Assembly (NCBI GenBank): GCA_963840455.1
Contig: CAWIYV010000004.1
Coordinates: forward strand, 64,001 to 128,000
From: Nitrospirota bacterium
GTDB taxonomy: Bacteria > Nitrospirota > UBA9217
Length of the DNA stretch: 64,000 nucleotides
Direction: 5' to 3'
Shown: piece by piece, positions 13,874 through 24,448 of the stretch
Layout: every line of letters starts with the position of its first letter
How positions within the stretch are numbered: position 1 is the first letter of the stretch
The notes under the pieces: model-generated
Told to the model about the DNA's origin: nothing
Database searches by the model: none
What the model saw: only the letters and a program-made list of their open reading frames with translations
Translations under genes and position numbers: made by a program

Positions 13874-16471
13874 TCAGGGATCCCTCTTGACCGGCTCTTT
13901 CCCGTGCATTGACGGAACCTCGTACAGTTCGCTTAAGAAATTCGTTTTATAGCGTTCGATGGCGCCATCATCATGGAGCATCGCGTCCAGTTGCCGGGTA
14001 AAGGATATCAGCCTCCCGAGAACGTCGAGGCGCGCTTCCATCTCATCCCGGCCGATGTTCGCCAGCCGGGCAACGATCATGTCGCCCTTGAGCTTGATAT
14101 GGAATCCCTGCTCGTGCAGGACGGCAGCGATCAGCTGGAGCCTCCGGGACCGCTTGGTGATGTCGGTGGCGCCGCCTGCGAAACGGAAATAGAGGTGATT
14201 GTTCCGGGTCACCTCGCTGCAGAAAGCGTCGAGGATGATGTAATGATACCCGAACTTGAGGCTCAGGTTCATATAGTCCCGCGAGATCACGGCAACGCTC
14301 GCGGAGGCCTGCGGCGCGCCGTCGGTCACGATATCCGACGCCCGCAGCATGCTCGTCATGAAGTCATTGGCCCGGAGCGGCACCGACTCTGAACGCCAGA
14401 CGCCCGGATGGACCATGCCCCTGATCACCGCCCGGAGCGGCACCGACGTCACCTGGTCGGTGGTCACGTGGTCCCGTGGTGCGGCATTCTGCAGTCCCTC
14501 TCCGATGTCGATCAGAACGATCCCCGCGGGGATCGAAAGGTCCAGTTTGACGGTACGGTTCGATCGCCACCCCGCGCCTGCCTGATCGATCAGCTCGGCA
14601 ACGGACTTTTCATGGATGAACCGCAGGATGTCATGGAGCGTCCGGCACGCCTTCGGCGTAAAGTCGTCCCGCAAGGGATCGACCAGATTAAGGGGAACGA
14701 TGTACCTCAGCAGGTAACGCTTTTTTCGGTACTCGGACAGTTCCTCCATCCGAAGGGAACCGGCGTTCGCCCGGTCGAGGAGTTGATCCACGACACCGGG
14801 ATAGACGGTCACCTCATGTTCATCGATATGCACCGTGACCTGTTGTCCATGGACGAGGGTCCGGGTCATGTCACCGGTGTTGACCGCCGTCGGAAGCCTG
14901 AACTCGCGGCAGAGTGATGCCATGTGGCTTGTCAGGGCACCGGTGTCGGTGATGATCGCGGCGACATCGGCCATCACCCTCACGAACTGCGAAGCATCAT
15001 GCCGGGCAACCAGGATATCTCCCCGGGAGACCCGGTCAAGATCGGCCGGATTTCTGAGAATAAAGACCCTGCCGGTGGCTCCTCCCGGGTAAACGGCTAA
15101 ACCGTTCTTCCGGGCAATTGCCTGAACCTCTCTGTCCAAGGCCGCCCGATCAGGCTTTTTCCCTGCAGGTTCGGAGTCCCTGAGCGGTCGGGATTGCAGG
15201 ATAAAGACCTTTCCGTCGCCATCGATCGCCCATTCGATGTCCTGCGGTCTCCGGAAGTGCTGTTCGATCTTCACGGCCAGGCCGGCGATCCGGGCGACCT
15301 GCTCCGGCAACAGGCTGGGACGTGTCCGGACGTTCACGGGAACTGACAGGGTCGCGGTCCCGCCACCGCTTACCCGTACAGCCAGGGATTCCTTTGTGCC
15401 GATTTTTTGCTCCAGGATCTCGAAAGGGTCGCCTTTGCTCACCCGGAAGTAGTCCGAGTCCGTTCTGCCCTCGACGACCGATGTTCCCAGTCCCCATGTC
15501 GCGTTGATGACAACACTGTCGCTTGCTCCCCGCGGATCGCGGGAATAGGCGACGCCGCTCGCCGCCGCATCCACCATCACCATACAGGCGACGGCCATTT
15601 TCATGTCCGTTACCCCGTACCCGAGCCGCTGCTGATAGACCAGAGCGCTCGGTGCAAAGATGCTGGCGAGGACCTTCCGGTATGCTCGTTCGACGGCCGC
15701 GGTCTCGGACGGAACGTTCAGCACCGTCTCGAACTGTCCGGCAAACGAGAAGTCGCCATCCTCTTCTCCCGCACTGCTCCGGACCGCGATATAGCAGTCA
15801 CCGCGGCAGCGTTTTCTCAGCCTTCTGACCCCCCGCTCGATCGCACGGCTCAGCTCCGTCGGCATCTCCCCGTGCAGGATGAGCTCCCGTGCCTCCTGAT
15901 AGGCCCTACCGGCGTCCGGACCTCCGGTCAAACCTGAACGCTCCATGACCCGGTTGTGCAGCAGGTATGCTTCAGCAGCCTGTGTCGTGATGACGAATGA
16001 GGCTGGGACCGGCAACCCCAGCCTGTTTCCGAGCTCGGCGAGGTTCCTGGCCTTGCCGCCGACCGCTCCTGCCGCGCTGTCGTCAATATCCTCGGCAACA
16101 ACGACTAGGTCCTTCCTCTGCGGCGAAGCGCCGTCGATCGCGTACCTGATATTCTCATTGATCGACCGATAGACCGTTCGGAGCCGTGGATACCGGCCGG
16201 AGGTAAGCTCTTCGAAGCTCGTAAGCGACCCTTCCAGGGACGCGGAGAGTTCCCCGTAGGAGCGCCGGATATACTGGATATCAAAGAGGTAGTCGCCGCT
16301 CAGTATGTCGCCGATGTCCGTTATGATCTCAAGCGACCGGTTGTTGTTCTTCAGCACGTCGCGGAACTGCCGGAACAGCGCTTCAGGCGAGGTCCGTTTG
16401 CGGGGCCGGATCCCGAGGTGCCGTACAATTGTGGTGAGCCATCCCGCTGGTTTCTTCATGGCCGGTGTCAC
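13874..16471 (-). CDS. PEP synthase/pyruvate-water dikinase-like protein (ATP-grasp + His swivel + non-canonical C-terminus)
   Basis: VGGKARNL, AVRSSAGEED..FSFAGQF, ATWGLG, PQDIEWA..ILQSRP; phospho-His motif TGALTSHMASLCREF. Confidence 0.9.
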   Translation of the reverse strand: MTPAMKKPAGWLTTIVRHLGIRPRKRTSPEALFRQFRDVLKNNNRSLEIITDIGDILSGDYLFDIQYIRRSYGELSASLEGSLTSFEELTSGRYPRLRTVYRSINENIRYAIDGASPQRKDLVVVAEDIDDSAAGAVGGKARNLAELGNRLGLPVPASFVITTQAAEAYLLHNRVMERSGLTGGPDAGRAYQEARELILHGEMPTELSRAIERGVRRLRKRCRGDCYIAVRSSAGEEDGDFSFAGQFETVLNVPSETAAVERAYRKVLASIFAPSALVYQQRLGYGVTDMKMAVACMVMVDAAASGVAYSRDPRGASDSVVINATWGLGTSVVEGRTDSDYFRVSKGDPFEILEQKIGTKESLAVRVSGGGTATLSVPVNVRTRPSLLPEQVARIAGLAVKIEQHFRRPQDIEWAIDGDGKVFILQSRPLRDSEPAGKKPDRAALDREVQAIARKNGLAVYPGGATGRVFILRNPADLDRVSRGDILVARHDASQFVRVMADVAAIITDTGALTSHMASLCREFRLPTAVNTGDMTRTLVHGQQVTVHIDEHEVTVYPGVVDQLLDRANAGSLRMEELSEYRKKRYLLRYIVPLNLVDPLRDDFTPKACRTLHDILRFIHEKSVAELIDQAGAGWRSNRTVKLDLSIPAGIVLIDIGEGLQNAAPRDHVTTDQVTSVPLRAVIRGMVHPGVWRSESVPLRANDFMTSMLRASDIVTDGAPQASASVAVISRDYMNLSLKFGYHYIILDAFCSEVTRNNHLYFRFAGGATDITKRSRRLQLIAAVLHEQGFHIKLKGDMIVARLANIGRDEMEARLDVLGRLISFTRQLDAMLHDDGAIERYKTNFLSELYEVPSMHGKEPVKRDP

Positions 16472-16833
16472 TTTCCCAGTGCACGCCTGATGGATGCCTT
16501 GAGCTCATTGATCTTGACGGGTTTCGGAAAGAAGTCATGCACATCTCCCCGGAGCGCCTCGATCGCCGCATCAAGGTTCGCGAATGCGGTGATCATGATG
16601 ACCTTGGTCCCCGGATACTGCTTCTTCACGATGCGGAGGACCTCCATGCCGTCGATGCCCTTCATCTTGTAGTCGGTCACTACGACATCGAAGGACTGTT
16701 CCTTGAGCCGTGCCAGCGCCGCCTCTCCGTTCAGGAATGTCTCCACGACAAACCCGTCCGTTTCCAGTGACAGCTTGGCCATGTCGCCCACGATCTTCTC
16801 ATCATCAATGACCATGATCCTGTTCTTATTCAT
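16468..16833 (-). CDS. Single-domain response regulator
   Basis: IMVIDDE, VTDYKM..IDG, ITAF, FPKP motifs. Confidence 0.93.
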   Translation of the reverse strand: MNKNRIMVIDDEKIVGDMAKLSLETDGFVVETFLNGEAALARLKEQSFDVVVTDYKMKGIDGMEVLRIVKKQYPGTKVIMITAFANLDAAIEALRGDVHDFFPKPVKINELKASIRRALGK

Positions 16834-18238
16834 TGTGTTTGCCAGCTCCTTTCCAGATCGGCAGTTCTATCGTAAAGGTGGTGCCGACACCCACCTTGCT
16901 CTCCACCCGGATCTCGCCCCGGTGGTTCTTGATGATGCCATAGCTCACCGAGAGGCCGAGCCCGGTGCCCCCCTCCCCCTTGGTGCTGAAGAAGGGATCA
17001 AAGATATGCGGCAGAAACTCCGGCGATATGCCCTTGCCCGTGTCCATGACCGTGATCTCCACGGTGTCGCCCTGTCTTCCGGTCCTTGTTCCGATGTAGA
17101 GCTTCTCGCCGGATTTCATTGCCTGGACGGCGTTCGTGATGAGGTTCACGAAGACCTGTTGCATCTGGTGCTCGTCCGCGAACACATGGGGTATCCCCTC
17201 GGCGAGATGCAGTTTCGTCTCGATGTTCGCCACATCGATCATGTTCTGCACGAGCGTCAACGTCCTCTGGATGACCGCGTTGATGTCTGCCTCGCGGGGG
17301 TTCGAATCCTTGGGTTTGGAGAAATCCAGCAGGTTTTTCACGATCTTCTGGATCCGCACCGCCTCTGCCTCGACCTTGCCCATGAACTCGATCCGCTGCT
17401 TTTCGGTCAGCTTGCCGTACAGATCGGCATAGGTCTGTGCGATCATCGAGATGTTGTTCAGGGGATTTGTCAGTTCATGGGCAACGCCCGCCGTCAGAAC
17501 GCCGAGCGATGCGAGCTTCTTGGCCTGGATGAGCTGCTCTTCGCGGTGGCTGAGCTCCTCGGACATGGAATTGATGGCCGTGATGACGGCCCCGAGCTCA
17601 TCTTTTGACTGGAACCCCTCTATCTTGTTGAAGTTCCCCTCAGCGATCGACCTGGTCAGCTTCTCGATCTCACGAAGGGACCGCAGGATCTTCTGCGATA
17701 AGAAGTGCCCCATGAGCAGCGCCGATGCCAGGATCGCCCAGAATGAGAAGATCAGGATCCGCTTCGAGTTCAGGATGATGGTGTTGACGCGCTGCCGCTC
17801 GAGCTGGGTGATGGAGTCCGAAAATTCCTTCAACCGCTTTCCGGCGGCCCGCAGGTCCGTTTCCCGGTCCGCGTCCCACGACCGGGAACGGCGCAGCAAC
17901 ATCACGTGTCCTGCATAGACCTTCAGGTAGGACTCCAGTTTTCGCAGGTCCTGTTCTCCGATGGCTGGCACGATGTTCGGGCGTTCGTCGTCGATGGTCT
18001 TCCGTGCGAGGTCGATCTTCTCCCGGATCTCGTCAAGCGCCTTCTGGTCCCGGTACAGGAAGTAATTCTTCTCCGCGATCCGCATCTCCAGGAACGAAGC
18101 GTTCAGATCATCGGCGATCTCGACGAACCGGAGCTTGGTCAGCACGAGGTTCATGTTCTGAATGGCAAAGAACCCGATCAGGATGATGAACGCACCGTTC
18201 ATGACGTTCGATACTATGAGCTTGTTCTCGATCTTCAT
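16826..18238 (-). CDS. HAMP sensor histidine kinase (NtrB-like)
   Basis: AGVAHELTNPL H-box, NLITNA, DTGKGI, FDPFFSTK and GTGLGL motifs. Confidence 0.95.
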   Translation of the reverse strand: MKIENKLIVSNVMNGAFIILIGFFAIQNMNLVLTKLRFVEIADDLNASFLEMRIAEKNYFLYRDQKALDEIREKIDLARKTIDDERPNIVPAIGEQDLRKLESYLKVYAGHVMLLRRSRSWDADRETDLRAAGKRLKEFSDSITQLERQRVNTIILNSKRILIFSFWAILASALLMGHFLSQKILRSLREIEKLTRSIAEGNFNKIEGFQSKDELGAVITAINSMSEELSHREEQLIQAKKLASLGVLTAGVAHELTNPLNNISMIAQTYADLYGKLTEKQRIEFMGKVEAEAVRIQKIVKNLLDFSKPKDSNPREADINAVIQRTLTLVQNMIDVANIETKLHLAEGIPHVFADEHQMQQVFVNLITNAVQAMKSGEKLYIGTRTGRQGDTVEITVMDTGKGISPEFLPHIFDPFFSTKGEGGTGLGLSVSYGIIKNHRGEIRVESKVGVGTTFTIELPIWKGAGKHNE

Positions 18239-18253: not shown

Positions 18254-19498
18254 TCACCGGAACGATGCCTGCTCCTCGTCCGGGTAGGCGATACCCCGCG
18301 GGACCTCGGCCTGCTCCTTCCTGACGGGCCAGTACCACCGCATCCCGTCCACGAGCATCAGGATGCCGGCGGCCATGAGCCAGAGATTTATGGAGGTGAG
18401 GAGGCCCAGTCCGAAATACGCCAGGCTGCCGATGCCGATGCCCAGCAGGGACGTCCCGGTGCGGATGAAGGCGAGTCCGGTCCTCGCCCGAGCATACACC
18501 GTGCGATAGCATGCGGCGATCGTCCGCTGCGCCGCCAGTACATTGCGCTCCCGGGCGAACATGGTCCGCGTCCTGCTCGTGGGCGACGGGCCTAAATAGG
18601 TGCTGTAGTCGGCCAGCAGGTCCCCCATCCGCGCGAGCATCGTCCCCTTCGTTTCCCGTCGCACTCCCGTGTCCTCCAGCGTGTGGTAGCTCTCCAGGAA
18701 CTGGATCGTGGCGGCCGTCACTTCCGTGAGCGTCTGGCTGCCCGGCGGCTTCATCCTCGATCTCCGCACCCGCCAGTAGCTCGGGAGGCCTGAGAGGGAA
18801 ATCACGACGCCGATGACCACGAGAGAGAAGTAGTGCAGGGGGCTGGCTGCCATGCTCTTCGATTGCAGCAGCGCGTTCGAAAGCGCGATCGTACCGAGGC
18901 CCCACCGCAGGAAGGCAAGACCGGTCCTGGCCTTGGCAAGGTCGGTCCGGTAACAGGCCATCCGCGTACGCCACTGCGCCATCGTGTTCCGCCAGAATGC
19001 CAGCCCCGTCCGCTCCGTTCCGATCAGGAGCCCCGGCCTGGCATGCAGGAAATCCTGGAGGTACCACTGGATGTCCGCATCGAGGGCGACGCGGAACTCA
19101 TAGCGCCCGTCCCCGAGCTGCTTCCGCACGTCCTCCTGCATCGCCCGGCTTCCCGGGTCCCTCGTTGCGATGACCACGGTCCCGGACGCCTCCTGTATGA
19201 CAGGCATCCACCGGTTCGTCGAAAGCGAGTCCACGCTGACCCTGACCAGCAGCCCGGGAGGGATGGGCAGGCGCTCATCATATTCTATGGAGGGACAGTC
19301 ATAGTACGCTGCAAGCGATTCAAGCAGCTGCGCCTTGGAGATGCCGTATTCCCGCTGCAACACCGATTCGAGCTCGATGCCCCTCGCCTGAGCCGCCTTC
19401 GCAGCCGCCTCCAGCCCCGCGCGGCTGATCATCCCCCGCTCGACGAGCAGTGCGAACTCTTCTTCGCTCTGCGTTGCCTGCGATTGGTCGTTGTGCAT
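18254..19498 (-). CDS. GspE-N/MshEN-like N-domain + two DUF202-like TM hairpin modules
   Basis: N-terminal LLVERGMIS..LEAA..LESVL..ISKAQLLESLA..VVIATRDP; two RTxxAxxRT...RTGLAF modules, each followed by two hydrophobic helices; ATG at 19498. Confidence 0.7.
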   Translation of the reverse strand: MHNDQSQATQSEEEFALLVERGMISRAGLEAAAKAAQARGIELESVLQREYGISKAQLLESLAAYYDCPSIEYDERLPIPPGLLVRVSVDSLSTNRWMPVIQEASGTVVIATRDPGSRAMQEDVRKQLGDGRYEFRVALDADIQWYLQDFLHARPGLLIGTERTGLAFWRNTMAQWRTRMACYRTDLAKARTGLAFLRWGLGTIALSNALLQSKSMAASPLHYFSLVVIGVVISLSGLPSYWRVRRSRMKPPGSQTLTEVTAATIQFLESYHTLEDTGVRRETKGTMLARMGDLLADYSTYLGPSPTSRTRTMFARERNVLAAQRTIAACYRTVYARARTGLAFIRTGTSLLGIGIGSLAYFGLGLLTSINLWLMAAGILMLVDGMRWYWPVRKEQAEVPRGIAYPDEEQASFR

Positions 19499-19502
19499 TA
19501 GG

Positions 19503-21158
19503 TTATGAGTCCTCATGATCGAACAGCACCGTTCCCCATGCACGGTTCGGTTTCCCGTAGTCGGGCACCGTCAGTTCCATTGCCCCATAGCAATAGGGAT
19601 ATTCCTTTCTGATCCGTTCCGCGGGCACGATCCAGCGATAGCCGTCAGCGATCAGGGCAAGACCGGTAACGATCATAACCGCGTTGACCACGCTCCATCC
19701 CGCCGAAGCCGTACCGAAGTACACCAGCAGGCCTGCGCCGACGGACGCGATGCTCATCCCGGTCCTGACAAAGGCCATGCCAGTCCGCGCCACGGCCATG
19801 GCCGTGCGGACCCTCGCCATGACGCCCCGCCGGTCGGCGAGCACGGTCCGTTCCAGTGCAAGCCCCGTGGTGGCCCAGATGCCCGGCAGCTGGTCGCCGC
19901 TGACCGGCGGCCCCGGCCGCTCCTTCCCCGTTCCCGCGCGATTATGCCGGAGCGGGAACACGAGGTCCCAGATGCTCATCTTGTCGATCACTTCCATCAC
20001 CGACCGCAATCCATCCATGCCGGACCTCCGGCCGCCCAAATACCAGAGGAATCCCTCGGCGGACATGAGCGCGCCGATGACGATAAGCGCGACGTCAAGA
20101 AGCGTCCAGGCTCCAGCCGGGAACTGGCGCAGAAGCCCGATGCCGAGGCCGGTAAAGGCAATGCCGGTCCTCGTAAAGGCCAGACCGGTCCTTGCCCGGG
20201 CAAGCTTCGTCCGGTGGCCGGCAAGCGAGGTCCGGTCCTCGGCCATGTCGGTCCGGTCGCTCGCCAGGAACCGCCGCCGCATTACGGGAGACAGGTTCTC
20301 CCATCCGCTCCGGAGCTCCGCCGAACCCGGCACCACTTCCGTCCTGTTGAACCGGGGAGGGCCGTCGCCAAGATCAGCATCGAGCACGCAGGTTCCCCAG
20401 GTGGATTCCGAGCGCGCCGCATCGATAGATTTCCCGGCGATCGCCCGCGCCGGAAGATACCAACGTATCCCATCAACCGCCATAATTAGGCCCGCCGCGA
20501 GGAGCGGTGCTTCGATCGCGGCGTACCAGCCCGATCCCAGCACGCGCAGGAACAGCAGCGCTATCACGATAAAGGAAACACCGGTCCTGATGAAAGCGAG
20601 GCCGGTCCGTCCTTTCGCGTACAGCGTCCGGTAATGCGCATAGGTCGACCGCCGGTAGGCAAGGAGCGTCCGTACGCGCGCGAGCGGCGTCCTACCTGCA
20701 CAGCCGAAGAAGCTGGGGTTCACGTCGAAATTGTGTTCGATGATGCGGATGATATCCCCGGGAAGGGCTATCCGGAAGTCAATCTCTTCCACGCCCAGCG
20801 TCTTCTTGATGTCCTCAGCCACGCGAGGATCGTCGGGACGGTAAGTGATCACCTCCGCTCGCCGCTCCTGGACCGAGAGCGGGAACCACAAACCCTGCTT
20901 CAGATGCTCCATGTCCAGGCGGAAGGTGAGAAAATAGGAAGCGATCACGCTCTCGTCGAATTCCACGAAGGGCAGGTGGTAGCGGCCGGCAAGACAGAAC
21001 AGGACCTCGTGCTTCGGCACCCCTGCTTGCAGAAGCAGCTCTTCCAGCGGCGTTTTCGTCTCCGCCGATATCCGGCCAAGTTCCTCCAACCGGGCCTGTG
21101 TTATGAACTTTCTCGCAACGAGCCGCTTGAAAGGTGCTATGACAGTATTTCGTTCCAT
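19503..21158 (-). CDS. GspE-N/MshEN-like N-domain + three DUF202-like TM hairpin modules
   Basis: N-terminal LVARKFITQARLEE..LEELLLQAGV..LPFVEFD; three RTxLAxxR...RTG(L/M)AFxRTG modules, each followed by a TM hairpin. Confidence 0.7.
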   Translation of the reverse strand: MERNTVIAPFKRLVARKFITQARLEELGRISAETKTPLEELLLQAGVPKHEVLFCLAGRYHLPFVEFDESVIASYFLTFRLDMEHLKQGLWFPLSVQERRAEVITYRPDDPRVAEDIKKTLGVEEIDFRIALPGDIIRIIEHNFDVNPSFFGCAGRTPLARVRTLLAYRRSTYAHYRTLYAKGRTGLAFIRTGVSFIVIALLFLRVLGSGWYAAIEAPLLAAGLIMAVDGIRWYLPARAIAGKSIDAARSESTWGTCVLDADLGDGPPRFNRTEVVPGSAELRSGWENLSPVMRRRFLASDRTDMAEDRTSLAGHRTKLARARTGLAFTRTGIAFTGLGIGLLRQFPAGAWTLLDVALIVIGALMSAEGFLWYLGGRRSGMDGLRSVMEVIDKMSIWDLVFPLRHNRAGTGKERPGPPVSGDQLPGIWATTGLALERTVLADRRGVMARVRTAMAVARTGMAFVRTGMSIASVGAGLLVYFGTASAGWSVVNAVMIVTGLALIADGYRWIVPAERIRKEYPYCYGAMELTVPDYGKPNRAWGTVLFDHEDS

Positions 21159-21395
21159 CGTACCTTTGTGCCTCTATCCTTATTCAATATTAGCAAAAAA
21201 CACGGCCGGAAGCATGCTGTGCCTCCGGCCTTCAAGACAGGACGAGATGTTCACCCACCGCACGGAGCTGGATCACGTACCGGACGACGGGACGTATGAA
21301 TCAGTTCGGTTCATCCGCAGCATCCTCAAGCCATCCTCCGGAGCTCTCTTCTCTCCCCAGTATTGTTCCCTTGCCTTATTCGTCTTCCTCCGGGA

Positions 21396-21818
21396 TCACG
21401 CCCCGACCACGAACACCGGGCAGGGAGCCCGGCGGATCACGTTCTCGATCACATGATCGCCGAAGAGCCGGCCGAGCCAGCCTTTCGGTTTTTTCGCACC
21501 GAGGATAATCACGTCGCACCGCTCTTCCGCCGCAACCTCCACGATCTTCTCGGCGGGCGCGCCTTCTTCCAGCCGGGTCCTGATCAGGGCGCCCGCTGCA
21601 TCGGCGGCGCTCCGCGCCCCGGCAAGGGCCTTTTGTGCTTCGCTGTCGAGCACATCATTGAGATTCTTGATGCCCGTCAGATTAAGGTCTCCCTCGTACT
21701 CCGGAATGACCTTGAGCACCGTGACCCAGGTCTTTTCGTCCTGCGCCATCTTGATGCCTTCCTGCACGACATCCGTCGATCCGTTCATGGCGATCAATAC
21801 TTTACGATAGCCTTTCAT
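21396..21818 (-). CDS. Universal stress protein
   Basis: KVLIAMNGS, EGAPAEKIVEVA, DVIILG, ENVIRRAPCPVFVV. Confidence 0.92.
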   Translation of the reverse strand: MKGYRKVLIAMNGSTDVVQEGIKMAQDEKTWVTVLKVIPEYEGDLNLTGIKNLNDVLDSEAQKALAGARSAADAAGALIRTRLEEGAPAEKIVEVAAEERCDVIILGAKKPKGWLGRLFGDHVIENVIRRAPCPVFVVGA

Positions 21819-21855: not shown

Positions 21856-22719
21856 CTACTTCACCACCAGCACCGGGCAGGCCGCGTGGCTGATCACCCG
21901 GTTCGTCGTGCTGCCCATGATCGCCTGGTTCACGCCCTTCCATCCGTAGGTCCCCATGGCGATCAGGTCGTTCTCGAGCTTCTGCGCCGCAGCCACGATC
22001 TCGTCGGACGCATGGCCCTCACGGACCTCCGTCCTGACGCTTATGCCCAGCCCGTCGGCGATCTTCTTCGCCTCGCCGAGGATCTTCTCGGCCTCGGCGT
22101 GGAGGCTTTTCTTGATGCTGTCGCTCCGGTAGAACTCCATCATCTCCTCGTACCGCGGGATCACGTACAGGACCGTGACCTGCCCATTGTCCGCCTTCGC
22201 CATCTCGCCTGCCCGGACCAGCGCTTTCCTGCTGAACTCCGATCCGTCATAGGGCACGAGCAGCGACTGATAGCTCCCCGTGCATTCGCTGCATGGCCGC
22301 TTCACCACCAGCACGTCACAGGGCGCGTTCAGGATAACCTGGGACGTCACGCTGCCCATGAGCAGCCGCTTCAGGCCTTTCCGGCCGTAGGTCCCGAGCG
22401 CGATGAGGTCCGCCTTCTTGCCTTGGGCGATATCAATGAGCACTTCGGGCGGCTCGCCCTCGCAGACGAAGGACTCGACGCTGCCGTTCAGGCCGAACTG
22501 CGCCTGAAGCTCTTGCTTCGCCGTTCTGCAGACATGCGTGCCCATCTCGAAGCGCTTCTCCATCTGCGACGGCAGGATTGCGAACTCCTCCTGGTCAAAG
22601 TAGACCGCATGGACAAGGTAGAGCTTACCGTTCAGGTTCTTGACCCGAAGGGATGCCTCCTTGAGCGCCGCTTTGCTCGACTCCGACTCGTCATATCCCA
22701 CTACGATCGTGCTGTACAT
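21856..22719 (-). CDS. Tandem-domain universal stress protein
   Basis: Two USP domains (DLIALGTYGRKGLKRLLMGSV; DLIAMGTYGWKG..MGST). Confidence 0.93.
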   Translation of the reverse strand: MYSTIVVGYDESESSKAALKEASLRVKNLNGKLYLVHAVYFDQEEFAILPSQMEKRFEMGTHVCRTAKQELQAQFGLNGSVESFVCEGEPPEVLIDIAQGKKADLIALGTYGRKGLKRLLMGSVTSQVILNAPCDVLVVKRPCSECTGSYQSLLVPYDGSEFSRKALVRAGEMAKADNGQVTVLYVIPRYEEMMEFYRSDSIKKSLHAEAEKILGEAKKIADGLGISVRTEVREGHASDEIVAAAQKLENDLIAMGTYGWKGVNQAIMGSTTNRVISHAACPVLVVK

Positions 22720-23519
22720 TAGTGTGAACCTCCGCCCTTCCGGAAGACCATGCCCACGCCGAATCCGGCGCTCAAGGCAATTCCGATGGAAAGGAATCCG
22801 TAAAGTGCCGCGCTGTCCTTCGCCATGCCCGCAAGCGTCTTGACCATGCCCACCTGCTCGACCTTCACATGCGATTCCGCCTGTTCAACCACTTTGCCGC
22901 CCTTGATCGCGTACACGGACACCGTGTAATCGCCCGGCGCCGCCTGGTAGGGCCACTGGGTCTGGATGAAGTATTCCTGGTGCCCGTCCGGCAGGTCCTT
23001 CATCTCGATCTTCCCGAAATCGGTCTTGTAAAGGTTCGATGCTTCCTTGAACTTCACGAACTCTCCGAACCACTGTGTCTTCTCTGCCGCATTTGCCATG
23101 GGGCTGATCTCCACATGGTCAGCCAGCGCCGCGTAGCCTAGCGTATGCTTTTTCTGCTCATCGGCGGTCAGGATATCATCGACCTTCTTTGTGCTGAACA
23201 GTTCGTACATGTTCGGCGTGTTCTCGAACTTCAGCGTGCCTACGTTCATCCAAAGCACGCCGGCAACCTTGCCCTTCTGCTTCATGACCTGGTGCCCCTC
23301 GGGGGAGGTGATCTTGATCACCAGGTCCCTGCCTGCGTCGGAGATCCCCTTCACGCCCACCGTGCTGCCGTGGTAGAAAAAGTCGATGGTGATGTGGTCA
23401 TGGTTCGCCTTCGCCGTCAGCATGGCATGCGCCGTGCCTGAGAATCCTACGACCATGACTGCAACCAGCGCGACGATTATGGCCTTTCCGCAATCCGCGA
23501 TCCGCGATCCGCAATTCAT
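22719..23519 (-). CDS. TIGR02186-like protein (signal peptide, C-terminal TM) partnering TauE
   Basis: ITIDFFYHGSTV.V.G, KGKVAGVLWMN, PGDYTVSVYAI, ALYGFLSI; directly downstream of TauE. Confidence 0.8.
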   Translation of the reverse strand: MNCGSRIADCGKAIIVALVAVMVVGFSGTAHAMLTAKANHDHITIDFFYHGSTVGVKGISDAGRDLVIKITSPEGHQVMKQKGKVAGVLWMNVGTLKFENTPNMYELFSTKKVDDILTADEQKKHTLGYAALADHVEISPMANAAEKTQWFGEFVKFKEASNLYKTDFGKIEMKDLPDGHQEYFIQTQWPYQAAPGDYTVSVYAIKGGKVVEQAESHVKVEQVGMVKTLAGMAKDSAALYGFLSIGIALSAGFGVGMVFRKGGGSH

Positions 23520-23521
23520 TA

Positions 23522-24448
23522 TTAATGTCCTCCCGCCTGTGAGATGAGCAGCGACGGCGTCAGCGTCAGGTCGAACACGATCTTGACGGTCACGATCAGC
23601 ACGATCGTAGCGAGCAGGACCTTGAGCTGCTCACCCTTGAGCTTCCTGCCGAAGACCGTGCCGATCTGGGCGCCCACCGTGGAACCGACCAGCAGCAGCA
23701 CGGCCAACAGGAAGTCCACGCTGTGGTTCGTAGTGGCCTGCAGAAAGGTGACCTCGATGCAGGTGAACAGTATCTGGAACAGGCTCGTCCCGACCACGAC
23801 GTGCATCGGCATCCGGAGCATGTACACCATCACCGGCACCATGAGGAAGCCTCCTCCCACACCCATGATCGCGGCGAGTACGCCGACGAAGCCTCCGAGC
23901 ACGATGGGAACCAGGGCCGAGTGGGTCACGCCGGACTTCTCGAACCGCGTCTGGAGCGGCAGCGACTTGAGGAAGCGCCCGACTGCGGAGTCCTTCTCCT
24001 CCTGCGCTTCGACGATGGTCTCTTCCTTCTTCTTGCGCATGCTCTGGATGCTTTCGATGAACATGTAGACGCCCACGATACCGAGCATCAGCACGTAGGT
24101 CATCTTGATCACGAAGTCCGCGTTTCCCATGGCGTGCAGCAGTTTGATCGCCTGCACACCAACCAGGCCGCCCAGAAATCCGCCGATGAGAAGGTAGATC
24201 CCCATCTTGAAGTCCACATTTCCCACCTTCCAATGGGCATAGGTGCCCGAGGTCGAGGCCGCGACGATCTGGTTCGAATCCGTTGCCGCGGCAACGGTCG
24301 AGGGGATGCCGAACATGATGAGCAGCGGGGTCAGCAGAAAGCCGCCGCCCACGCCGAAGAGGCCGGACAAGAGCCCCACGGCCAGACCGAGGCCGACGGG
24401 AATCAGGATATTGATGCTGGTGAGTGCTACGGGTAGATACAGGTACAT
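23522..24448 (-). CDS. TauE/SafE (TSUP) family anion transporter
   Basis: MYLYLPVA, GLFGVGGGFLLTP and MGVGGGFLMVP repeats, VVGTSLFQ. Confidence 0.93.
   Translation of the reverse strand: MYLYLPVALTSINILIPVGLGLAVGLLSGLFGVGGGFLLTPLLIMFGIPSTVAAATDSNQIVAASTSGTYAHWKVGNVDFKMGIYLLIGGFLGGLVGVQAIKLLHAMGNADFVIKMTYVLMLGIVGVYMFIESIQSMRKKKEETIVEAQEEKDSAVGRFLKSLPLQTRFEKSGVTHSALVPIVLGGFVGVLAAIMGVGGGFLMVPVMVYMLRMPMHVVVGTSLFQILFTCIEVTFLQATTNHSVDFLLAVLLLVGSTVGAQIGTVFGRKLKGEQLKVLLATIVLIVTVKIVFDLTLTPSLLISQAGGH

Follow-up and report, generated by a model that had tools for sequence, protein, structure and literature searches.

We analyzed a 64,000-nucleotide window of a Nitrospirota genome (assembly GCA_963840455.1, contig CAWIYV010000004.1, positions 64,001 to 128,000) and found that two adjacent paralogous genes on the minus strand, termed A and B, encode three and two arginine-ladder membrane modules of the DUF202 type, respectively. 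The five modules probably make up one Arg-lined conduit or track for anions. A preliminary description of the window had proposed the 3+2 arrangement, and both open reading frames and all five ladders that it quoted are present (Table 1). The genes lie 4 nt apart, as it had noted. Specifically, the open frame of B extends over 18254-19543, and the ATG at 19498, which gives a protein of 414 residues, is located 4 nt past the A stop codon. To our knowledge, DUF202/YidH is a large bacterial family of no known function, and its sole understood relatives are those of the eukaryotic vacuolar transporter chaperone (VTC), a polyphosphate (polyP) channel. No published description of the A-B system was found in a literature search without subscription journals and bioRxiv supplements.

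The domain composition was inspected with Pfam. A matches both DUF202 (PF02656, 52.4 bits in three stretches) and MshEN (PF05157, 36.8 bits), each above its curated cut-off (23.4 and 23.1 bits, respectively). B matches MshEN with 41.2 bits over residues 75-153, and its DUF202 score in hmmscan, 22.2 bits, is slightly below the cut-off. Scanning the whole genome with PF02656 yielded three matches in the A frame, two in the B frame (23.7 and 20.3 bits), and one ordinary DUF202 gene with a single domain (80.6 bits), located on a different contig. The five modules align gap-free across the ladder with 31-48% identity to the first module of A (A1), and the modules of B fall within this range. Hence, the proposed homology to DUF202 holds for the modules of both proteins.

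Each module is composed of five or six RTxLAxx heptads, which lead into a two-helix membrane hairpin. An R[T/N/S] motif recurs every 7 residues at 156-191, 295/302-330, and 437-465 of A, and at 163-191(198) and 311-346 of B. Every ladder is followed by two hydrophobic helices according to hydropathy and, for A, also according to the DSSP assignment of an AlphaFold2 (AF2) model. Sequence, hydropathy, and model thus agree with the described plan of Arg at every seventh residue for five to six heptads into a transmembrane hairpin. The heptad positions were then compared in 52 A-family and 47 B-family sequences. Arg fills 100% of the cells at position a, Ala 94-95% at position e, and Thr 77% at position b; position d is Leu or Met, and positions c, f, and g are variable and often polar. 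As a and e are this constant across the 99 sequences, the ladder pattern lies far beyond chance. Counted back from the last RT motif, levels 0-4 are Arg in all five modules and level 5 is Arg in four of them, which gives 29 Arg in total. In every module, the final two RT motifs align with the beginning of the canonical DUF202 profile, and the ladder prolongs the DUF202 register by four more two-turn units. In the AF2 single-chain model of A, which has a predicted local distance difference test score (pLDDT) of 81.1 and a predicted template modeling score of 0.73, the ladder and the first membrane helix (TM1) form one unbroken helix of 50-55 residues (156-207, 291-345, and 432-481). The second helices span residues 213-241, 352-392, and 486-519. 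Because each module has two membrane helices, all ladders should be on one side of the membrane, presumably the cytoplasmic side.

The total of five modules is conserved. We collected 46 related genome loci from Nitrospirota metagenome-assembled genomes and one unclassified bacterium, and in 42 of them an intact three-module gene is directly followed by an intact two-module gene. As for the remaining four, a contig end cuts L031, L034, and L052, and B is split over two frames in L023; no other arrangement of A and B occurs in the 46 loci. The complete 3+2 pair is also present in 21 of 28 loci of an independent metagenome set, which was collected from a distant branch with a distant three-module protein (source name Thermoleophilia) as query, and contig ends cut the other seven. 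None of the 11 incomplete loci of the two sets is a counterexample. In a sample of 201 genomes evenly drawn from the phylum, module matches number exactly five in 32 genomes and one in 13, and totals of two to four or above five do not occur. The expectation that homologous loci keep five modules was therefore borne out. A maximum likelihood tree was built from 82 modules of 15 loci (out of about 75) and four single-module outgroup proteins. In this tree, each module position forms one supported group (A1 99/99, A2 100/100, A3 100/99, B1 100/99, and B2 94/95). Taken together, the locus counts, the genome counts, and the module tree indicate that the 3+2 layout is old and that the five positions are separate, non-interchangeable lineages.

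These counts bear on whether A and B act separately, e.g. as homo-oligomers, the module sum of five being a coincidence of two paralogs. The domain plan is common to both proteins, single-module relatives could form rings only as homo-oligomers, and two A-type genes are found in five of the 46 loci, all of which agrees with separate action. However, B sits behind A in all loci of both sets that are neither contig-cut nor frameshifted, none of the 201 genomes has only two or three modules, and the five positions are separately conserved. In addition, the modeled ring described below closes via two different interfaces. Separate action is thus very improbable.

The complex was predicted for the membrane parts of A (residues 146-551) and B (residues 153-414), each with its own family alignment. 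The ipSAE scores of the A-B complex are 0.74, 0.74, and 0.73, compared with 0.00 for the best of three controls. The mark applied to ipSAE is reached by 116 of 157 solved complexes and by 2 of 215 mismatched pairs, which is only a rough guide here as custom alignments were used, and a pass can also arise from likeness to solved assemblies. The partner pLDDT is 62-65, and the runs share at least 85% of their contacts. We found two interfaces between the chains. The first one is between A1 (residues 156-206) and B2 (residues 310-360) only, and the second one is between A3 (residues 433-480) and B1 (residues 160-213) only, with no residue of A2 in the A-B interface. These contacts, with A2 left free, are as needed for a closed pentagon in the order A1-A2-A3-B1-B2. 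A3 and B2 make their contacts via heptad positions g, a, d, and e, at a mean of -26 and -28 degrees from position a, and A1 and B1 via positions a, b, e, and f, at a mean of +75 and +90 degrees. The angle between the two flanks of a helix is ~103-118 degrees, compared with 108 degrees for a regular pentagon, and their bisector falls between a (Arg) and e (Ala). Arg residues of the same level meet across the chains, as R177 of A does with R332 of B and R170 of A with R325 of B. In this prediction, the two chains close one five-membered ring with Arg and Ala facing the axis. Of the five-fold Arg-lined tube in the preliminary description, the ring and the axis-side Arg are supported by this controlled prediction, and what was said of transport stays a proposal.

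We propose the following arrangement. A and B would pair 1:1 in the cytoplasmic membrane, where the five two-helix DUF202-type modules would close a pseudo-pentameric ring. The five ladder/TM1 helices of ~50 residues would form a tube that begins ~40 Å inside the cytoplasm and goes on, in the membrane part, as its inner ring. The tube wall would consist of heptad positions a (invariant Arg) and e (Ala), with five full rings of five Arg and a sixth ring of four. The ring would conduct an anion in a regulated manner, or would at least offer it a track to bind to. A linear phosphate-type polyanion would be the most probable choice, since in the homologous VTC ring basic TM1 residues spaced i/i+7 line the polyP path. 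Regulation of the conduit probably lies with the sensor kinase and the single-domain receiver encoded downstream of B, and the phosphoenolpyruvate (PEP)-synthase-like dikinase probably supplies or acts on the cargo. Conduction, cargo, and regulation are what we infer here. The architecture came through every computational test able to contradict it and is supported as far as computation reaches; with the conduit itself a proposal, the interpretation as a whole is partly supported.

The genes stand in the order A-B-kinase-receiver-dikinase, with gaps of 4 and 15 nt followed by overlaps of 8 and 4 nt. Counted over the 46 genome loci as far as the contigs extend, the kinase lies behind B in ~35, the receiver is present in ~34 (excluding four matches of 31-34% identity elsewhere in the locus), and the dikinase in 31. 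The receiver is 75-86% identical between loci. The metagenome set keeps the five-gene order as well, as does L049, the locus that diverges most. Of the 32 five-module genomes, 29 have an ortholog of the dikinase, recognized by its C-terminal domain (E<1e-130), as do 5 of the 169 others, and in the three genomes without a match (G050, G103, and G161) the A-B locus is close to a contig end. Extra dikinase paralogs lie beside A-B in L078, L081, L083, and L084. The link to the dikinase in the preliminary description is hence real, as shown by the shared operon and by the co-occurrence. Its link to TauE and universal stress proteins (USPs) is not a necessary one, as the TauE/Alph_Pro_TM/USP flank is present in only 28-31 of the 46 loci and missing from the whole clade with the extra A paralog. 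The constant partnership with a two-component pair and a dikinase defines a conserved five-gene system hitherto unstudied.

Table 1. Features of the A-B locus, given in positions of the window.
Feature	Coordinates	Strand	Description
Gene A	19503..21158	-	ATG, 551 aa; MshEN-type N-domain, three ladder/hairpin modules, conserved C-terminal tail
A N-domain	20721..21146	-	~residues 5-146; MshEN/GSPII fold without c-di-GMP motif
Module A1	20436..20693	-	residues 156-241; Arg 156, 163, 170, 177, 184, 191
Module A2	19983..20288	-	residues 291-392; Arg 295, 302, 309, 316, 323, 330
Module A3	19602..19865	-	residues 432-519; Arg 437, 444, 451, 458, 465; T430 at sixth level
Gene B	18254..19498	-	414 aa, paralog of A; MshEN-type N-domain, two ladder/hairpin modules
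B N-domain	19040..19450	-	~residues 17-153; MshEN-type
Module B1	18761..19012	-	residues 163-246; Arg 163, 170, 177, 184, 191, 198; then hairpin
Module B2	18323..18568	-	residues 311-392; Arg 311, 318, 325, 332, 339, 346; then hairpin
Sensor histidine kinase	16826..18238	-	470 aa; two transmembrane segments, HAMP, HisKA, HATPase_c (Pfam)
Receiver	16468..16833	-	single-domain response regulator, 121 aa; Pfam Response_reg 98.2 bits
PEP-synthase-like dikinase	13874..16471	-	865 aa; ATP-grasp, phosphohistidine swivel, 300-aa C-domain
Dikinase C-domain	13877-14794	-	residues 560-865; conserved 300-aa alpha+beta domain
Terminator-like hairpin	21204..21230	-	11 pairs, 8 of them G-C, then T-run; between USP gene and A
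USP	21396-21818	-	Pfam
Tandem USP	21856-22719	-	Pfam
Alph_Pro_TM	22719-23519	-	Pfam
TauE/SafE	23522-24448	-	Pfam

Several findings weigh against a conduit built from the A-B pair, and some differences from VTC, given with that comparison, add to them. The pLDDT of the complex model is moderate (62-68), and the predicting network may lean on VTC or coiled-coil regularities. When the A model was searched with Foldseek and VIA-align, clear matches were confined to the N-domain, and no VTC entry was returned for the membrane part; its best fold rows are designed helical toroids and barrels with Z 9.7-10.9, below the meaningful level for helical repeats. An extra three-module paralog lies upstream in L035, L037, L041, L048, and L051, bringing these loci to eight modules each, although that of L035 is a recent copy according to the module tree. 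A metagenomic A-like protein, P0124 (399 aa), has only two modules, the first of which begins like A1 and goes on like A2, which would suit a recombination between modules 1 and 2; this form could be real or an assembly artifact. A weaker point is that no fused five-module protein (>965 aa) was found, in a search that is weak for long proteins. As regards the operon, G154 has the kinase, receiver, dikinase, TauE, Alph_Pro_TM, and USPs without A-B. In G039, A-B-receiver and kinase-dikinase are on different contigs, and in G184 kinase-receiver-dikinase is separate from A-B. Finally, the a/e stripe within the membrane consists of Gly/Ala/Ser/Val, which could equally fit a tightly packed closed bundle.

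The G154 locus and the a/e stripe also speak for a different role, in which a polyanion or a partner protein would bind to the five-helix Arg/Ala/Leu bundle as a cytoplasmic stalk or receptor, and the hairpins would only anchor it. Such a stalk would act as a signal or scaffold, e.g. with the receiver or the dikinase docked at the membrane, and the small residues of the pore-facing stripe permit tight packing. The receiver and the kinase are constant partners, receiver domains are fused to single-module relatives (P0302 and others), and in G154 the kinase, receiver, and dikinase run without A-B. Moreover, MshEN-type domains dock proteins or bind ligands, and the structural neighbors of the A N-domain include the PilB-N/PilZ complex 7lko. 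On the other hand, 29 like charges along one axis would be expected to require an internal counter-ion, the invariant hairpins and the five fixed positions exceed the needs of an anchor, and the homologous VTC ring is a channel. We consider a mere stalk quite improbable and retain the conduit or track. The 3+2 pair offers the DUF202 family a testable structural hypothesis, i.e., a five-ring with a charged axial path, with the 29 invariant Arg as mutational handles.

The dikinase was identified by Pfam through PPDK_N (5.1e-79) and PEP-utilizers (1.3e-15), and PEP-utilizers_C, the PEP/pyruvate barrel, is absent by Pfam. It scores 296 bits against the NCBIfam PEP synthase model NF005057 (cut-off 598), aligning to model positions 3-476 of 798 only. 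Its phosphohistidine motif is GALTSH with His516. The pattern GxxT[SN]H is present in 34 of 39 dikinase relatives, and three of the other five keep the His in a variant motif, the last two being left undecided by the His pattern. Thus, the dikinase shares the ATP-grasp domain and the phosphohistidine swivel, with the His kept, with the PEP synthase/pyruvate phosphate dikinase (PPDK) family. Different from that family, it carries an extra N-terminal region of ~130 aa, and the barrel is replaced by the 300-aa C-domain. This domain has many invariant residues, e.g. FGYH and FRFxGGA. Its AF2 model (pLDDT 64.8) has no Foldseek match at E<=1e-3, and ESM Atlas returned unnamed or 'PEP-utilizing enzyme family' clusters only. 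Of the 201 phylum genomes, 64 have dikinase paralogs of 850-1090 aa in other contexts. The sole ordinary single-domain DUF202 gene of the genome is ~6 kb from its second PPDK_N protein, a 904-aa frame (G000:C14:246789-247811 and C14:253880-254122, in L001); this proximity may be due to chance.

With respect to the cargo, marker genes put the completeness of the genome, which consists of 14 contigs, at 100%. The genome has one Ppx-GppA protein, and the profile search detected neither polyphosphate kinase 1 (PPK1; PF02503 and PF13090) nor PPK2 (PF03976), so there is no known polyP source in it. This likewise counts against a phosphate polymer moving through A-B, as does the finding of PPK1 in only one of the 32 five-module genomes (G155). 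A complementary distribution of the system and PPK1 was considered and discarded as uninformative, since PPK1 is present in 25 of the 201 genomes, nearly all of them from three other families. In the window's own family, PPK1 occurs in 1 of 44 genomes, whether the system is present or not. The absence of PPK cuts both ways: either polyP is lacking and the cargo is another one, or the linked dikinase is the source. PPDK, a member of the same enzyme family, forms a P-O-P bond when making pyrophosphate.

The ladder length would favor a linear polyanion over small ions, and a small oxyanion is favored by the TauE paralog in place of A-B and by relatives whose names refer to sulfur cycling. In the latter case, the same ring would pass sulfite, sulfate, thiosulfate, or phosphate, with the Arg ladder as an electrostatic funnel. 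Specifically, a second TauE/SafE-family gene, whose product is 65% identical to the window TauE, occupies the exact A-B slot of G154 (L056, G154:C2:33000-52900, ~14359-15255), between the USP gene and the kinase-receiver-dikinase genes. TauE and Alph_Pro_TM are beside A-B in ~30 of the 46 loci, relatives are named Thermodesulfovibrionales, Candidatus Sulfobium, and Dissulfurispiraceae, and the lack of PPK1 and PPK2 fits as well. Nevertheless, small multivalent anions would be expected to be caught in five to six consecutive Arg rings instead of passing, the Arg heptads of single-module relatives number up to 20 in a row, a polymer is the cargo of the homologous solved ring, and the tight link to the dikinase would be left unexplained. 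A small-oxyanion channel is therefore unlikely. If it were true, A-B would represent a regulated anion channel of a new class, found in anaerobes that cycle sulfur.

For the polyanion conduit, a phosphate polymer in particular is a possible but doubtful cargo. If it is the cargo, A-B would be the first candidate bacterial polyP translocase and would hint at a non-PPK source of polyP. Some bacteria were reported to secrete polyP, and the abstract as listed does not name the exporter (PMC10653871). A bolder version, to which we assign a low probability, sees the operon as a full bacterial analog of VTC assembled from other parts, in which the dikinase would polymerize phosphate via its phosphohistidine and thread it into the 3+2 Arg tube under control of the sensor kinase and receiver. 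In that event, it would be a third prokaryotic polyP route and the first bacterial polyP translocase, found in lineages lacking PPK1 and PPK2.

The N-terminal domains of A and B were described as MshEN-like and devoid of the RLG motif, and the structural comparison agrees with this. The A N-domain superimposes on MshE (5htl_B) in VIA-align with Z 14.4 and a root mean square deviation of 3.1 over 138 of 139 residues, and matches the GSPII-B domain of PilF (8pe0) in Foldseek with E 1.1e-4. Judged from the model, it has a genuine MshEN/GSPII fold. In the accessible text of the source, MshEN receptors of cyclic di-GMP (c-di-GMP) have two motifs of 24 residues each, RLGxx(L/V/I)(L/V/I)xxG(L/V/I)(L/V/I)xxxxLxxxLxxQ (PMC5013675). 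This motif is absent, in its strict as well as in a relaxed form, from all 52 A and all 47 B sequences. The NCBIfam c-di-GMP_motif model matches B only, with 23.4 bits and a cut-off of 38. c-di-GMP gating by the canonical MshEN mode is thereby ruled out. Hence, A and B have the fold and PF05157 in common with the ATPases MshE, PilF, and PilB, but lack the c-di-GMP motif, and their domain is joined to a membrane protein instead of an ATPase.

The C-terminal tail of A (residues 520-551) contains the invariant Y534 and W541 as well as PYC at 521-523. In the AF2 model, the tail and the first inter-module linker (residues 242-290) form small beta elements; the other linker spans residues 393-431. 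In the complex model, the tail is in contact with residues 396 and 399 of B. The tail and linkers could provide a cytoplasmic cap or docking site.

Upstream of A, the terminator-like hairpin is only ~36-46 nt ahead of the start codon, after the USP gene, and no sigma-70-like promoter was found between the hairpin and A. A and B may be transcribed by read-through from upstream or from an unrecognized promoter. Rfam gave no match at E<=1 in 21100-21450, and no riboswitch was thus found upstream of A. Four public runs were compared as contigs, of which X4 is the sole true RNA-Seq library and the other three are RNA by guess. Short contigs of X4 show 95-99% likeness to parts of the receiver, kinase, and A genes, and one 744-nt contig of run X1 spans the A/B junction; neither is proof of transcription or of a single transcript. 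The window TauE protein partially matches the TauE-like C-terminal part of the magnetosome protein MamO (NF040961, 44 bits, far below the cut-off of 800).

Among known membrane proteins, CorA and bestrophin are pentameric and have a central pore with one long helix per subunit reaching from the cytoplasm into the membrane, and CorA has two membrane helices per subunit, as the A-B modules do. Both are homopentamers with a pore chemistry unlike that of A-B, and no relation in sequence or fold was seen. Single-module DUF202 relatives with long ladders have the RTxLAxx heptad and the hairpin in common with A-B. Different from A-B, they have one module, up to ~140 residues of consecutive Arg heptads, and no MshEN, and five identical chains would be needed for the same ring; some of them carry a C-terminal Response_reg (P0302). 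At least 843 clusters (90% identity) match the long-ladder protein P0190 at E<=1e-5, with source names including Desulfomonilaceae, Acidobacteriota, and 'Deltaproteobacteria'. A itself matches only 257 clusters (50% identity) at E<=1e-3 among 1.84 billion representatives. Architectures in the family comprise a single module, alone or with a receiver, MshEN with two or with three modules, and three modules without MshEN. PF28019.1 is the Pfam accession listed for the long-ladder proteins P0190, P0274, and P0281. The YidH-type DUF202 protein of E. coli belongs to the same Pfam family and shares the ERT...RT start of the first helix with the A-B modules, but has one module in ~115-136 aa with two RT motifs and no N-domain. 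In the accessible text of a functional screen, YidH is a candidate D-alanine exporter, and intracellular D-Ala was not lowered (PMC10299036).

The best-understood counterpart is VTC. PF02656 is tabulated as the transmembrane domain of Vtc4 (PMC12526157, table). According to the accessible text of the structural reports, VTC is a heteropentamer in which three copies of Vtc1 join single copies of Vtc3 and Vtc4; every subunit spans the membrane with three helices, and the pore is lined by the five TM1 helices (PMC9911596; bioRxiv 10.1101/2023.01.27.525886). Two positively charged rings are needed for polyP, formed by K24/R31 of Vtc1, K622/R629 of Vtc4, and K698/R705 of Vtc3, each pair being spaced by 7 residues (same sources). 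A-B has PF02656 in common with the VTC ring (three Vtc1, Vtc3 or Vtc2, and Vtc4). Five copies surround one axis in VTC, and A-B has five modules with the ring coming from prediction. The VTC pore is lined by TM1 with basic residues at i/i+7, and the A-B ladder has an invariant Arg at position a for five to six heptads. Both are hetero-assemblies of diverged copies, and an ATP-using enzyme is tied genetically or physically to either of them. In contrast, the copies are spread over five polypeptides in VTC and over two in A-B, and the basic ladder of A-B has five to six rings reaching into the cytoplasm, compared with two rings in VTC. The differences that count against a VTC-like conduit are the following. 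Each A-B module has two membrane helices and each VTC subunit three. The Glu of the VTC ionic lock (E30-R83 in Vtc1) is Ala or Gly in A-B, the residues ahead of the canonical RT in the five modules being G, A, A, A, and A, and the modules are without a third helix to bear the ionic-lock Arg. A profile of the five modules retrieved no VTC chain from the PDB sequences at E up to 10. A direct sequence link to the solved VTC chains was accordingly rejected, the profile having given two chance rows only (E 0.32 and 1.6). Beyond these points, the TTM and SPX domains of VTC are absent by Pfam from A, B, and eight neighbor proteins; A-B is bacterial and has MshEN-type domains at its N termini and a PEP-synthase-like dikinase as the linked enzyme. 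On present evidence, the A-B pair would work like the VTC ring, yet it is not a VTC complex.

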